Positions 6,196 through 57,904 of a DNA stretch of 64,000 nucleotides are shown one piece after another (positions within the stretch are counted from its first letter, which is position 1; every line of letters starts with the position of its first letter). Position numbers and translations under genes: made by a program. Below the pieces are notes generated by a model. The model made no database searches. It had not been told where the DNA came from and saw only the letters and a program-made list of their open reading frames with translations. The stretch is from Octopus vulgaris (taxonomy: Eukaryota): NCBI GenBank assembly GCA_951406725.2, contig OX597822.1, positions 5,766,001 to 5,830,000 of the forward strand, given 5' to 3'.

Positions 6196-6281
6196 AATTT
6201 AATTTTTTATTATCCATCTGGACTATTCCATTTCTGCATGCTAATTTTATTTTTAATTTATTCCCATTTATATGGGAATAG

Positions 6282-7592
6282 TTAGCCTTCCATTGACATT
6301 GCTGCACCTCTTATGTGTCCATAGCTTACACTTGGTGCATCCTATAGAGTTTCTACCTACGCCTTTTCTACAGATCGAGCAGGCATTTGTGATTTGTCTA
6401 CCTTCCTACTTATTAGGACTTTGGTTTTAGCTAGGTTGACTCTAAGGCCCTTCGATTCTAATCCTTCCTTCCACACCTGAAACTTCTCCTCCAGTTCTAA
6501 TAGTGACTCAGCAAATAGAGCAATTAGCGCATAGAGGAGCTCCCAGGGGCATCCCATCTTGAATTCCTCCGTTATTGCCTGGAGGACTATGATAAATAGG
6601 AGGGGGCTGAGGACTGAACCTTGGTGGACCCCTACCTCTACTCAGAATTCTTCACTGTACTCATTGCCAACCCTCACTTTACAAGCAACGTCCCTGTACA
6701 TGGCTCGCACAGCTCTCACTAACCATTCATCTATCCCTAGTTTCCTCATTGACCACCAGATAAGGGATCGGGGGACCCTGTCGAAGGCTTTCTCCATATC
6801 AACAAAAGCCAGGTACAGGGGCTTATCTTTGGCTAGGTATTTCTCCTGCATCTGCCTTACCAGGAATATAGCATCAGTGGTACTCTTCCCTGGCACGAAA
6901 CCAAACTGCATCTTATCTAAACTAACTCTCTCTTTCTTATTAGTTGGGCTATGACCCTCTCCGTAACCTTCATTACCTGATCCAACAGCTTGATACTTCT
7001 GTAATTATTTGTATCTAGGGCGTCACCTTTACCTTTGTAGCAGTTGACTATTATGCTGTTACACCAGTCATTGGGTATGACTCCTTCGTGTATCACCTGA
7101 TTAACTATACGGGTGACTAGGCTATAGCCGACACTACCAGATATTTTGAGCATATCTGCAGTGATTCTTGATGGACCTGGGGCTTTCCCTGTCTTCATGC
7201 TTCTAATTGCCTTAACTACCAAGGAACTGTCAACTCGGATAGCTGGTCCCTCTGTTGGGTCAACATTCGGCAGACTCTCTTTGTCCCATTCATTTTCTTT
7301 ATTCAGCAACCTTTCATAGTGGCGTTTCCAAGCCTCTCTCTTTGCATCCTCATTTAGTGCAAGTGGGCCATCATCCATGTGAACACACTTCTCTCCTACC
7401 ACATCACGATTCTCTCTCCCACACTGTCTTGCAACACGAAATACCTCAAGTCTTTGGTCCTCATGGCGCAGAACATTGGCAAATTTTTTCTTATCTGCTT
7501 CCCCTCTGGCTAAATAGACCTGTCTCCTAGCTTCCCTTTTGGCAGTCTGATACAATTCCCTGCTACCACCATTTTCCCAGTCCTTCCAAGCC
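6282..7592 (-). mobile_element. RTE-clade LINE fragment, reverse transcriptase domain (inactive)
   Basis: ORFs 6917-7555 (KAPGP, DW..SIIVNCYKGKGD, NYRSIKLL), 6642-6911 (QFGFVPGKSTTDAIF, AFVDMEKAFDRV) and 6357-6557 (ELLYA-L with the catalytic YADD aspartates lost; GLRVNLAKTK). Frameshifted. Confidence 0.92.
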
Positions 7593-10249: not shown

Positions 10250-10820
10250 CATTAATTAAAATCTTAGGGTAGCAAGAATATTTATTGAAAAATTCTTAGT
10301 TACCAGTGGTCTGGCAAGAAAGGAAAAATTAGTCAATAGACTATATATTATTCAGAGAATAATACAGTGTACATTCAAACACAAAAGAGATACCCGACGA
10401 ATAGGATATCTGACTCACTAGAAAGAGCAGTTAAAACTCAAAGCCACAAATTGTTGTAATCCCGAAAGTGATTGAAAAATAAAAAAACTTTTACCTTAAT
10501 CCTAGACCCTGCAAGGTTTCTGCAGACTTAAATACAGATTGAAATAAAATAATCTCAGTCTTGCTCATTTATAGCTCCATGTCTATGCGTTCAGTCTTGG
10601 CAATCTACTGAGGACGCAGCGCCAGATATAGGCCGAAGTTATTTTATTTCAATCTGTATTTAAGTCTGCAGAAACCTTGCAGGGTCTAGGATAAGGGTAA
10701 AAGTTTTTTTTACTTTTCAATCACTTTCGGAATTACAACAATTGGTAGCTTGGAGTTTTAACTGCTCTTTCTAGCGAGTCAGATATCCTACTCTTCGGGT
10801 ATCTCTTTTATGTTTGAATT
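10250..10820. mobile_element. Non-coding Penelope-pLTR/retrozyme-like element with ~180-bp inverted arms
   Basis: Arms 10373-10552 and 10639-10819 are inverted complements. The left part is homologous to 11985-12230. TA-rich runs on both sides. Contains a hammerhead. Confidence 0.7.
10604..10690 (+). ncRNA. Type I hammerhead ribozyme (extended stem II)
   Basis: TCTA-CTGAGGA(10608-10614)-cGCAG...CTGCa-GAAA(10671)-CCTTGCAGG-GTC|TAGG. Stem III ACCTTGCAGGGT is near-palindromic. Predicted cleavage after C10686. Stem I is short (4 bp) and the stem II closing pair is a C-A mismatch. Confidence 0.65.
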
Positions 10821-11950: not shown

Positions 11951-11976
<26 letters not shown>

Positions 11977-11981
<5 letters not shown>

Positions 11982-12731
11982 CAATATAGGGTAGCAAAAA
12001 AATTCAAGAAAAATTTTCTGCAACCAGCGGCCAAGTGAGAAAATAGAAATAGTCACAGACTATATAATATATTCAAACAAAAGTATTAAGGAAAGACCCT
12101 TACAGGTCGTTCAACTCACTTGAAAAGAGCAGCCAAACTCAAAACCGCAAAAATAGTAGTAATTCTGAAAGCTAAAGGAGAAATAAAAACATTTATTCCT
12201 TTCAACTTTGTACCCTGCAAGGTTTCAACAATTTTTACGCAATCGAACTTAATTAAATTAAATTAAATCCGTTTACGATTGGGTTGTTTCATCAGCAAAG
12301 TCTCCAAAAGAAAAGGCGGACATATACACACGAGGCGACACCACTGAAGCCCCGAGTATATATATCCTAATTTTTCGAAATCCAACGTAACCGCGCCAAC
12401 TACTCAGCAGCAAATATAAACTGCTGATAGAATTTCAGAATTAGTCAAAAATTATTAATTTATCAATATAGGGTAGCAAAAAAATTCAAGAAAAATTTTC
12501 TGCAACCAGCGGCCAAGTGAGAAAATAGAAATAGTCACAGACTATATAATATATTCAAACAAAAGTATTAAGGAAAGACCCTTACAGGTCGTTCAACTCA
12601 CTTGAAAAGAGCAGCCAAACTCAAAACCGCAAAAATAGTAGTAATTCTGAAAGCTAAAGGAGAGGTTTTGAGTTTGGCTGCTCTTTTCAAGTGAGTTGAA
12701 TGACCTGTAAGGGTCTTTCCTTAATACTTTT

Positions 12732-12735
<4 letters not shown>
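11977..12735 (-). mobile_element. Tandem 482-bp non-coding retroelement (retrozyme/Penelope-pLTR-like) with an inverted terminal piece
   Basis: 11977-12181 recurs apparently identically at 12459-12663 (period 482). 12664-12735 is an inverted copy of ~12557-12629. (TA)n on both sides. No ORF in the supplied track. Carries a hammerhead. Confidence 0.8.
12205..12301 (-). ncRNA. Type I hammerhead ribozyme (extended stem II)
   Basis: Minus strand: ACTTTG-CTGATGA-AACAA...TTGTT-GAAA-CCTTGCAGG-GTA|CAAAGT. Perfect 6-bp stem I, perfect 5-bp stem II (plus an inner CAATCG/CGATTG helix), canonical core, GUA triplet. Cleavage between 12211 and 12210. Confidence 0.88.
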
Positions 12736-12771
<36 letters not shown>

Positions 12772-27161: not shown

Positions 27162-27961
<800 letters not shown>

Positions 27962-54820: not shown

Positions 54821-56130
54821 CATCATCATCGTTTAACGTCCACTTTCCATGCTGGCAGGGGTTGGATGGTTTGACTGAGGGCTGGTGAGCCAGATGACTG
54901 CACCAGGCTCCAATCCAATTTGGCAGAGTTTCTACAGCTTGATGCCCTTCCTAACACCAACCACTCCGAGAGTGTAGTGGGTGCTTTTACATGCCACCTG
55001 CACGAGGGCCAGTCAGGTGGAACTGGCGATGACCTCACTCGAATGCTGTTTTATCATGTGTCACTGGCACAAGTGCCAGTAAGGCGATGCAGGTAACGAT
55101 CATGCTTGAATGGTGCTTATTACGTGCCACTGGCATGGGGGCCAGTCAGCAGCCCTGGCAACCATAATGCTTGGATGGTGCTCTTAATGTTTCACTAGCA
55201 GGGATGCCAGTCAGGCAGTGCTGTCATCGGCCACGTCTGTGAATATGTTTTCGATTTCACATGCCTCAACAGGTCTTCGCAAGGAGAGTTTAGTGTCCAA
55301 TAGGTGGGCTGGTTACACCACTGGAATAGGCCATGGGTTATGGTCTCACTTGGCTTGCCAGGTCTTCTCAGGCACAGCATATTTCCAAAGGTCTCGGTCA
55401 CTAGTCATTGCCTTGGTGAGGCCTAATGTTCGAAGGTCGTGCTTCACCACCTCATCCCAGGTCTTCCTGGGTCTACCTCTTCCACAGATTCTCTGAAGCG
55501 CTAGGGTGTGACACTTTTTCACATGGCTATCCTCATCCATTCTCACCACATGACCGTACCAGTGCAGTCATCTCTCTTGCACACCACATCTGAAGCTTCT
55601 TAGGTCCAACTTTTTCTCTCAAGGCACTTACACTCAGTCATGTATGCACACTGACATTACACATCCAGCAGAGCATACTGGCTTCATTCCTTGCAAGCTT
55701 ACACATGTCCTTGGCAGTCACAGCCCATGTTCCACTGCCATATAGCATGGCTGTTTGTACACTTGTGTCATACAGTTTACCTTTTATTCTGAGCGAGAAG
55801 CCCTTTGTCACCAGCAGAGGTAGGAGCTCTCTGAACTTTGCCCAGGCTATTCTTATTCTAGCAGCTACGCTTTCAGAGCATCCACCCCGACTACTGACTT
55901 GGTCACCTAGGTAATGGAAGCTGTCAACTATTTGTAGTTTTTCTCCCTGGAATGTGGCGGAAGTTGTTCTCTGCACATTTTCAGTGTTTATTGCACCTGA
56001 GCATCTGCCACATACAAAAACTATCTTCCCAGTTAGCCTTCCTTTGATTTTGCTGCACCTCTTATGTGTCCATAGCTTACACTGGGTACATCTTATAGAG
56101 TTTCTACCTACGCCTTTGCTACAGATTGAG
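54821..56130 (-). mobile_element. RTE LINE 3' ~1.3 kb with a PHD-like Cys/His insertion
   Basis: SICSKGVG..NSIRCTQCKLWTHKRCSKIKGRL..FVCGRC then VDSFHYLGD, AWAKFRELLP, LYGSGTW and GRGRPRKTWDEVVKHD, followed by 3' UTR and (GAT)n tail. Confidence 0.92.
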
Positions 56131-56192
56131 TTGGGCCGTCAAAACATAGGTTACAAATTATGTTCTGGAAATTATGTTTTGTAAACGACAGA

Positions 56193-56267
56193 CTATGCTG
56201 ACGATCTTGCAGATATTTGCATGTCCATATACGTAAATATTAACTAGAGAAACTAATTAGTACGTAG
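56193..56267 (+). ncRNA. Type I hammerhead ribozyme (extended stem II)
   Basis: CTATG-CTGACGA(56198)-TCTtG...CtAGA-GAAA(56249)-CTAATTA-GTA|CGTAG. Perfectly palindromic stem III ACTAATTAGT, 5-bp stem I with one G-U. Lies in a non-coding segment (56131-56431) ending at (TA)n. Confidence 0.8.
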
Positions 56268-56429
56268 GTAATAGTTTTTATTTCGTATAGTTTCATTTGT
56301 CTTGCTTATTTTTACATTTTGGTTTTCTGCTGAGATTTTTCTTGAGAACTCATTCTTCGTGGTAATGGCGATTTGACGTCTATGTTTAGCATATAGGCTG
56401 TCTACTTTAGTGGTCAGTCTTCTAAATTT

Positions 56430-56520
<91 letters not shown>

Positions 56521-56606
56521 AAAGTTTACGAAAAAACAAAAGACGAAGACAGATGGTGTACAAAACAAACAGATGTATTAGTATAATGCTCAGGAATAGA
56601 AAAAGT

Positions 56607-56642
56607 CTTTTACGTTTCGAGCCTACGCTCTTCTTCAGAAAG
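56607..56642 (-). ncRNA. Minimal Penelope-type hammerhead ribozyme
   Basis: Minus strand: CTTT-CTGAAGA-a-GAGC gtag GCTC-GAAA-C-GTA|AAAG. Stem III is reduced to the palindrome ACGT, with one extra A after A9. Lies in segment 56518-56705, which ends at (TA)n. Confidence 0.72.
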
Positions 56643-57904
56643 GGACACAGAAGAAACAAGGATAGAAAAAAAATGTGTGTAGTGGCTAACAATCTATCAT
56701 GGCGGTAGGTATGTATGCATTTATGAATGTGAGTGTCTGTGTGGCTGGTGACATTCCATGGCTTTACTTGTGCAAAATGGGGAATGATGTTTCTATTCTT
56801 TGTTGTCACTTTCTGGTTGCTCAATGGTTTCAAAGAATTATTTGAAAAAAAAAAAAACAGGTATGGGTTGATGACAATGATACCACTTGATTTAAAATCT
56901 GGCTTCAGGTATGCCCCTGTGAAACCCATGCTAGCAGAGAAAAACATAGACATCAAAAGGACGAATGAATAAAATAATTTATGGCTTTTGAAAATCTTTG
57001 CTAATGCCTAAACAGCTTGCAAAACATTTTATCCATAATTTTCTTTTACACGAAACCACGATTAGCTTTTAACTTCCTGTATGGCAATGTACTGCACAGG
57101 ATTGCATGCTTCAGTTAGTCCTGAAACACACAATATCACAAAAAATATACTAACCTTGGTTACTTTCATTGTAGACGATGTTTGGGACTCTCTAATGTAA
57201 GGGAGAAAATGCTAAAACCTTTCTGTCATTCATTTCTGTTCTGTAATGGAGTTATCGAAAGACTTGTAACTTTGGACTTCTTATCAACAAACTATGCAAT
57301 AATTTCTATATTCTTTCAAATTTTTAAACTTTAAAAAACCCAGTTCACTCTAACTTTCCACACAAAGCATGCCAATATTATTACTTGATGTTATGTGTAC
57401 AATGGAGTTAACAGGATTATGAACCATTAGTATATTCTGGGCTTATAAAGTTGTAAGTCAGCTAGTGTGTGACTTAATTTCAATTCTTGATACCTCACAG
57501 TCATTTTACGGTTTCTATTAATACAAATGGAAGCCAGGGTCTCTCTCTCTTTCTCTCTCTGTATGACCATCGTCCGAAGGGAAATAGCACTAATCTTCTT
57601 GGCTTGATTACAATTCACAAATTAGAATGTTACTTGTCATGACAAGTTATATTGAGAATATACTCTTGCCACTGTTGGTAGTATTAGATAATATTACATC
57701 CATTATTAATTGACGGCTAAACAGTTTTACTGTTACTGGTAACATAGATTTATTGCAAATATGCAAATGAGAAGTATATTCTAATATATTTATTTTAAAA
57801 TTATTTTTCTTTTAAAAATTGATATATATTTTATTATTCAACATTTAGCAGCAAATTTGAAAAAAGTAACCTTATATTATTGTCTTCTTCATATGACAAC
57901 AACT

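Follow-up and report, generated by a model that had tools for sequence, protein, structure and literature searches.

A type I hammerhead motif with a long stem II in a high-copy Octopus vulgaris repeat, probably the 3′ end of a Penelope-like element

Results

Organization of the locus

The window, that is, the whole 64-kb stretch of Octopus vulgaris DNA analysed here, is microsatellite-rich animal sequence; an 800-nt (TCA)n tract of ~263 copies lies at 27163-27961. The region of interest extends from a retrotransposon remnant to a second hammerhead-bearing element across a (TA)n tract. Its features are as follows, with positions counted from the first letter of the window.

54821-56130 (-): 5′-truncated non-LTR retrotransposon remnant; alignable with a second copy, at 6280-6379, as far as 56130
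56131-56161 (no strand): junction filler of 31 nt, not family sequence, almost no contig cover
56162-56431 (+): 3′ end, truncated on its 5′ side, of an interspersed repeat that is high-copy by contig cover and probably a Penelope-like element
56183-56197 (+): 5′ arm of stem I; distal six pairs at 56183-88, internal loop, proximal five pairs at 56193-97
56198-56204 (+): catalytic core CUGANGA (CTGACGA in the DNA); N7 is C in the locus copy
56205-56248 (+): long stem II of 44 nt (from the fold of the locus copy and the family variants)
56249-56262 (+): GAAA (56249-56252), stem III and the GUA triplet (GTA at 56260-56262)
56263-56277 (+): 3′ arm of stem I (from the pair table)
56432-56517 (no strand): (TA)43 microsatellite, presumed target site, tail to tail with a second hammerhead-bearing element
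56611-56638 (-): unrelated minimal hammerhead with ACGU only as stem III (descriptor match), in the element across the (TA)43

The non-LTR remnant at 54821-56130 is presumably an RTE. The upstream ORF of its second copy (6645-7004) matches RVT_1 with an E-value of 2.4e-8. In the remnant itself, the truncated start at 55641-56129 (-) contains a PHD-like Cys/His motif, with a sub-cutoff match to Pfam PHD (E = 7.3e-5). The preliminary description had connected the hammerhead segment with this RTE. The two do adjoin, yet the connection is one of adjacency only: they are arranged head to head, with the 31 nt of filler between them. Derivation of the family from the RTE was rejected, as no target-site duplication was seen by eye and one 7-nt word is common to the filler and the RTE. 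The filler is a patchwork of direct and inverted element words, with 10, 9, 8, 7 and 7 nt shared; support for this patchwork is modest, 147 of 2000 shuffled 31-mers holding a word of at least 9 nt. The filler resembles templated insertions at a truncated 5′ end.

The segment had been drawn from 56131 into the (TA)n. Its right-hand limit holds, the repeat running into the (TA)43 at 56432-56517, but its start has to be moved to 56162. Indeed, summed contig depth, which is no copy number, is 25, 0, 13 and 2 over positions 56151-56161 in the four runs used, as compared to 49,191, 77, 31,890 and 2,797 in the next bin.

The hammerhead motif

A type I hammerhead motif was located at 56183-56277 (+), with CUGACGA, GAAA, the 10-nt palindrome ACUAAUUAGU and a GUA site. 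The core, CUGANGA ... GAAA ... UH with A15.1-U16.1, is complete. From the pair table and the family variants, three helices surround it, stems II and III being closed and stem I open. The five proximal pairs of stem I join 56193-97 with 56263-67. From bottom to top, stem II has a basal position, 4 bp, a 2x2 internal loop and a hairpin whose 13 bp are capped by a 4-nt loop. The perfect palindrome ACTAATTAGT occupies 56252-56261, its first A being common to the GAAA. The predicted cut is after 56262, at the GUA site, 169 nt from the (TA)n and hence 169 nt upstream of the 3′ end of the element. The core, the GUA site and the perfect 10-nt palindrome announced by the preliminary description are thus all present, at 56198-56262. 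The sequence had also been called unrelated to the other hammerhead families of the window, and blastn against the other four hammerhead segments indeed gave no match. Nor was the segment convincingly similar to any of these four by alignment, the scores being reached by 7 to 88 of 200 shuffles, with 53945(-) the closest (7/200).

A strict type I descriptor matched five times in the 64-kb window. Over 600 dinucleotide-resampled windows it matched 14 times, or 0.023 per window, and in five of these 14 the stem III segment is at least 8 nt long. The motif at 56183-56277 is far above the chance expectation. Rfam gave no match at the gathering score across the 64-kb window. With E-values up to 10, over 56100-56760, four chance matches were obtained, none of them a hammerhead. 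Since none of the five motifs of the window was found at the gathering score and the minimal 56638 motif was missed even at E up to 10, the Rfam models do not cover this hammerhead type.

Family variants and stem support

Family copies were collected from contigs at least 80% alike to the locus in 4 of 24 runs, of which X1 and X7 belong to organism A, X5 to organism B and X8 to organism C. Matching contigs numbered 1780 (X1), 94 (X7), 2102 (X5) and 1377 (X8), showing a high-copy repeat common to three organisms. X7 is only guessed to be RNA, and its 94 contigs say nothing about expression. The hammerhead family put forward in the preliminary description is therefore borne out, with 1377 to 2102 contigs per DNA-type run in three organisms. 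In a pattern scan of viral contigs, no match was found.

Variants were read in the three DNA-type runs, at the same likeness threshold; the listed rows are 40 of 56. Position N7 of the core, C in the locus copy, is U in 78-85% of the family depth and is the sole core position that varies among the listed variants. The 13 conserved core positions have no variant among the listed rows, as compared to 25 rows in the 126 positions downstream, a contrast that is weak alone. The 5′ arm of stem I and the sequence upstream of it (56162-56201) have no listed variant row over 40 positions versus the 25 rows over the 126 positions 56278-56403, and are possibly a constrained stretch.

The fold of stem II was made from the locus copy alone, before the variants were seen, and left U08.U45 and A21.C32 mismatched. 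The majority letters of the family mend both in each of the three DNA-type runs, 56245 being A in 99-100% and 56221 being G in 81-90%, so that stem II is supported in the family consensus, the point on which the preliminary description had made its proposal depend beforehand. The chance that four changes in 44 nt would hit and mend both of these pre-predicted mismatches is about 0.005-0.01. Further variants in stem II, at 56215, 56219 and 56223, are switches between G.U and A-U. In stem I, the majority A at 56264 (92-93%) turns U.G into U-A, and the majority C at 56273 (86-97%) mends the mismatch of G87 and completes the distal helix; this helix (56183-88) was drawn after the variants were seen. 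Overall, family majority letters mend all three mismatched pairs of the locus copy, and seven paired-site variants (56215, 56219, 56221, 56223, 56245, 56264 and 56273) reach at least 5% in all three DNA-type runs with pairing kept or mended.

One majority variant counts against the model: at 56248, U makes up 98-100% of the family depth and breaks the basal pair of stem II, giving U.U where the locus copy has U-A. This is not a defect peculiar to the family, since U10.1-U11.1 is known in natural hammerheads and is the best-tolerated mismatch there (PMC3088659). Rare variants at 56247, 56258 and 56274 break pairs, each at 3% or less in the DNA-type runs. The variant 56254C, at 8%, 10% and 1% of depth in these runs, breaks a palindrome pair unless its partner changes too. 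The sole two-sided candidate is 56206 C>T with 56247 G>A, found at an equal depth of 26.8 in one X7 contig. Variant support for the stems consists of one-sided changes rather than proven covariation. Two hints, neither of them counted as evidence, suggest that sister subfamilies may alter the palindrome on both sides: the loose ends before 56275 read ...TGGTA (agreement 0.5-0.6), and in X1 a joint has TGGTA as its insert.

These variants bear on whether the motif could have arisen by chance in an ordinary repeat whose RNA structure is not under selection. The lack of an Rfam match agrees with such an origin, as do the folding z-scores of the locus copy (-0.7 to -1.6). So does a looser pattern run over metagenome contigs: none of its 16 matches had both stem I and stem II, only short words were alike, and all were rejected as chance. 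However, just 0.023 descriptor matches are expected per resampled window, the majority letters mend all three mismatched pairs and, with the reservation made above, the 13 conserved core positions are free of listed variants. A chance origin is therefore highly improbable.

Copies and joints of the repeat

Upstream of 56162, other copies of the family enter a common different sequence, with 17, 3, 22 and 8 loose ends in the four runs. This shows that the locus copy is 5′-truncated. The upstream loose end comprises 30 letters and differs from the segment's own 3′ end. No RT or GIY-YIG ORF linked to the family was found in these 30 letters and the truncated locus copy. Copies appear as short contig pieces: no contig of the four runs spans the whole stretch, and the junction of the locus with the RTE is absent from them. 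Among the 15 of 21 joints listed, nine change strand and six are deletions; five of the nine strand-changing joints were found in runs of two organisms. No head-to-tail joint occurs among these 15, no tandem array is present at the locus and no tandem of the pLTR (the terminal repeat of PLEs) was seen in the contigs. Adjacency of the family to (TA)n was observed at this copy only.

Joints and copy ends also bear on a second origin, in which the repeat would be a non-autonomous element (the monomer of a non-LTR retrozyme or a PLE-derived SINE-like repeat) that never had an ORF of its own and makes small circular RNAs. Its size and low GC would fit metazoan retrozymes, of 150-450 bp (PMC7229834), and no ORF is seen. 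The axolotl HHR_Amex2 shares the basal U.U of helix II and the build of stem III, its helix III being 2 bp and a tetraloop (PMC7229834). Nevertheless, Amex2 belongs to 350-bp tandem repeats with circular RNA (PMC7229834). The octopus family differs in being interspersed, in its (TA)n tail and in its inverted joints. Nine of the 15 listed joints are inversions and none is head to tail, the upstream loose end leads into new sequence rather than into the segment's own 3′ end, and the single copy at the locus ends in (TA)n with no tandem array, although a longer monomer is possible. We consider a non-autonomous element quite unlikely.

Folding energies and pairing of the palindromes

With an energy model that ignores core contacts, the hammerhead fold of the locus copy has an energy of -8.3 kcal/mol as compared to -14.8 kcal/mol for the MFE, which is another fold, and the mean pair probabilities of stem I are near 0.01. 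With its three broken pairs, the genomic copy at 56183-56277 is predicted to misfold and is probably an inactive fossil.

The palindrome has a self-duplex energy of -9.0 kcal/mol, whereas the stem III hairpin is at about zero (-0.3 to +0.5 kcal/mol). A double hammerhead reaches -28.6 kcal/mol versus -16.6 kcal/mol for two monomer hammerheads. However, the free dimer MFE is -41.6 kcal/mol, and the palindrome duplex is part of the dimer MFE for one of three fragment lengths. An intermolecular stem III between two palindromes is thus calculated to be energetically feasible; dimer pairing is plausible yet unproven on these values, and dimer-dependent cleavage would be plausible as well. A dimer via palindromic stem III is the published expectation for the class (PMC4209133), a 10-bp dimer stem has been drawn for an Aedes hammerhead (PMC3088659, legend of Fig. 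S8), and published hammerhead dimers are mostly two copies in one RNA (PMC6155905). The locus at 56183-56277 holds one hammerhead copy. The axolotl HHR_Amex2, with the same basal U.U and a helix III of 2 bp plus tetraloop, has low activity by itself and gains strongly from dimerization (PMC7229834).

As an alternative to the dimer stem III, a single RNA may close stem III by itself, with three pairs and a tetraloop. If the same element carried a hammerhead that is efficient as a monomer, the pairs A-U, C-G and U-A with the AAUU tetraloop would suffice, stems I and II would dock through their internal loops, and the palindrome would be no dimer switch. Invertebrate retrozyme hammerheads with two pairs and a tetraloop do cleave efficiently, with a kobs of ~0.8/min for a coral motif (PMC7229834). 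Moreover, both stems I and II have internal loops ~5 pairs from the core, as in extended hammerheads, and the MFE of a related architecture in the window, 12295(-), is a monomeric hammerhead (z = -3.3). Such monomer activity is nonetheless on the unlikely side, though it is the alternative that we take most seriously: the stem III hairpin adds only -0.3 to +0.5 kcal/mol, stem II is weakened by the U.U, and stem III segments are self-complementary in all five hammerheads of the window.

Comparison with hammerheads of Penelope-like elements

We think that 56162-56431 is probably the 3′ end of a Penelope-like element (PLE); for the Hydra clade specifically, the case is evenly balanced. Since no ORF was reached, PLE membership is an indirect assignment, that to the Hydra clade more so. 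In the element, the hammerhead is in sense orientation and near the 3′ end. The strand-changing joints would fit the inverted truncated copies typical of PLEs (PMC8557442), and two other hammerhead elements of the window have the typical layouts, partially tandem and inverted, and are bounded by (TA)n tracts. Taken together, the U.U, the 9-10-nt self-complementary stem III, the near-3′ position, the (TA)n targeting and the inverted junctions appear to match Hydra-clade PLE hammerheads. The U.U is not clade-specific, as it is seen in Amex2 (PMC7229834) and in other natural hammerheads (PMC3088659), and neither (TA)n insertion nor a 9-10-nt stem III is exclusive to the Hydra clade. The marks of this clade are RT phylogeny, RWK and DKT motifs, a CxCX5C linker and an EN without CCHH (PMC8557442).

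Files S1 and S2 of Craig et al. 2021 (PMC8557442) allow a closer comparison. Counted by eye in File S2, a U..U at the base of stem II is found in 14 of 25 Hydra-clade families, two of them with an identical motif entry, and every one of the 25 has a stem III segment that is self-complementary over 9-10 nt. Penelope-1_SK has a perfect 10-mer stem III, and Penelope-1_HM has acta-t-tagt (PMC8557442). In File S1, (TA)n targets are given for 26 of 27 families, again counted by eye. Like the hammerheads of Penelope-1_HM, Penelope-1_SK and Hydra-1_Obim, the octopus motif is of type I, on the sense strand, near the 3′ end and in an element with a (TA)n target. In contrast, none of the 25 listed Hydra families has a stem II longer than 26 nt (PMC8557442), and that of the 56162-56431 family, with its internal loop and 13-bp hairpin, spans 44 nt. 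Identity with a published Hydra-clade family was rejected, six short probe words and three sequence words being absent from the supplement of PMC8557442, where the wrapping of lines at 70 letters could hide one. Hydra-1_Obim was rejected as the same element because its 3′ end differs by eye (PMC8557442).

According to Cervera and De la Pena 2014 (PMC4209133), PLE terminal repeats carry hammerheads with a palindromic helix III, mostly as single truncated copies. These had low activity as dimer and trimer constructs and none as the single minimal motif (PMC4209133). The octopus motif resembles these PLE variants and that of Aedes aegypti (Perreault 2011, PMC3088659, Fig. S8) in its palindromic stem III, for which an extended dimer helix (10 bp in Aedes) has been proposed, its copies also being mostly single and truncated. 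It differs from the variants of both studies by a longer stem II and an extended stem I with internal loop, and by a U.U in place of their bulged base and G10.1-C11.1. A much lengthened stem II/loop 2 is found in the PLE hammerheads PLE-X1_sMoe and PLE-X1_sTam (PMC8557442, File S2). These are spike-moss, EN-minus elements with 28S rDNA targets (PMC8557442).

This kind of hammerhead has already been described, and perfect 10-nt palindromes and 10-bp dimer stems have been published, so that the palindrome as such was to be expected. The family is new, its long stem II being the sole unusual trait; it may have been catalogued already, for instance in Repbase or Dfam. Full-text literature, with few subscription papers covered, held no description of the 56162-56431 family or of long-stem-II cephalopod hammerheads.

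Proposed processing of the element

The motif, the family and the stem-compatible variation are observed, and the cleavage and processing steps proposed here are drawn from published PLE and retrozyme work. We propose that 56162-56431 is a 5′-truncated, decayed pLTR or 3′ UTR from a PLE that targets (TA)n and comes closest to the Hydra clade. Intact elements would be transcribed as partial tandems, and the ribozyme would cut after GUA, trimming the tandem precursor RNA. The monomer ribozyme would be weak, given the U.U at the base of stem II and three pairs plus a tetraloop in stem III. It would be switched on when two palindromes pair into a 10-bp stem III, most likely between two pLTR copies in one RNA, possibly with help from the element's own protein. 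Truncated cDNAs would subsequently insert at (TA)n, and stubs such as 56162-56431 would remain.

In an Anolis PLE, the hammerhead cut only with the element's protein, and cleavage was dispensable for insertion in vitro, which leaves the role of hammerheads in PLEs uncertain (PMC11167929). Tests of monomer, dimer and protein-assisted cleavage would have a clean substrate in a high-copy family whose extended stems I and II are well supported.

Other hammerheads in the window

The hammerhead at 12295-12211 (-), in an element at ~11971-12743, is of type I. Its stem II region measures 62 nt, its stem III is near-palindromic over 12 nt, and its MFE is the hammerhead fold, with a z-score of -3.3. The element lies between (TA)n tracts and contains two direct copies of a 211-nt sequence (99% identity, 482 nt apart) together with an inverted piece of 80 nt. 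It is a young copy with PLE-type layout and a better assay candidate than 56183-56277. A further hammerhead, at 10608-10686 (+) in the inverted pair 10373-10819, shares its 12-nt stem III with 12295(-) and has 56 nt in the stem II region. Its layout is inverted, head to head, and the other arm retains stem III at 10520(-). The 10608(+) and 12295(-) hammerheads are related to each other, not to the 56162-56431 family.

The lengths between A9 and G12 (44 nt in the 56162-56431 family, 56 and 62 nt in the 10608(+)/12295(-) pair) raise the speculative and rather unlikely idea of an undescribed subtype of PLE hammerhead. Its stem II would start with 4-5 bp and continue through an internal loop into a long distal hairpin; this loop would dock on an internal loop of stem I, the hairpin would recruit the element's RT-endonuclease, and activity would be gated by palindrome pairing and protein. 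Hammerhead families with stem II regions of 44-62 nt are probably undercounted, because they would escape short-stem descriptors and there is no Rfam match in the window.

Of the remaining hammerheads, the compact one at 53945-53914 (-) has an 8-nt perfect palindrome and a GUC site; no (TA)n follows within 1.8 kb, and it possibly belongs to a different element type. Finally, two unrelated hammerhead families, that of 56162-56431 and that of the element with the minimal motif at 56611-56638, lie tail to tail on one (TA)43 target.
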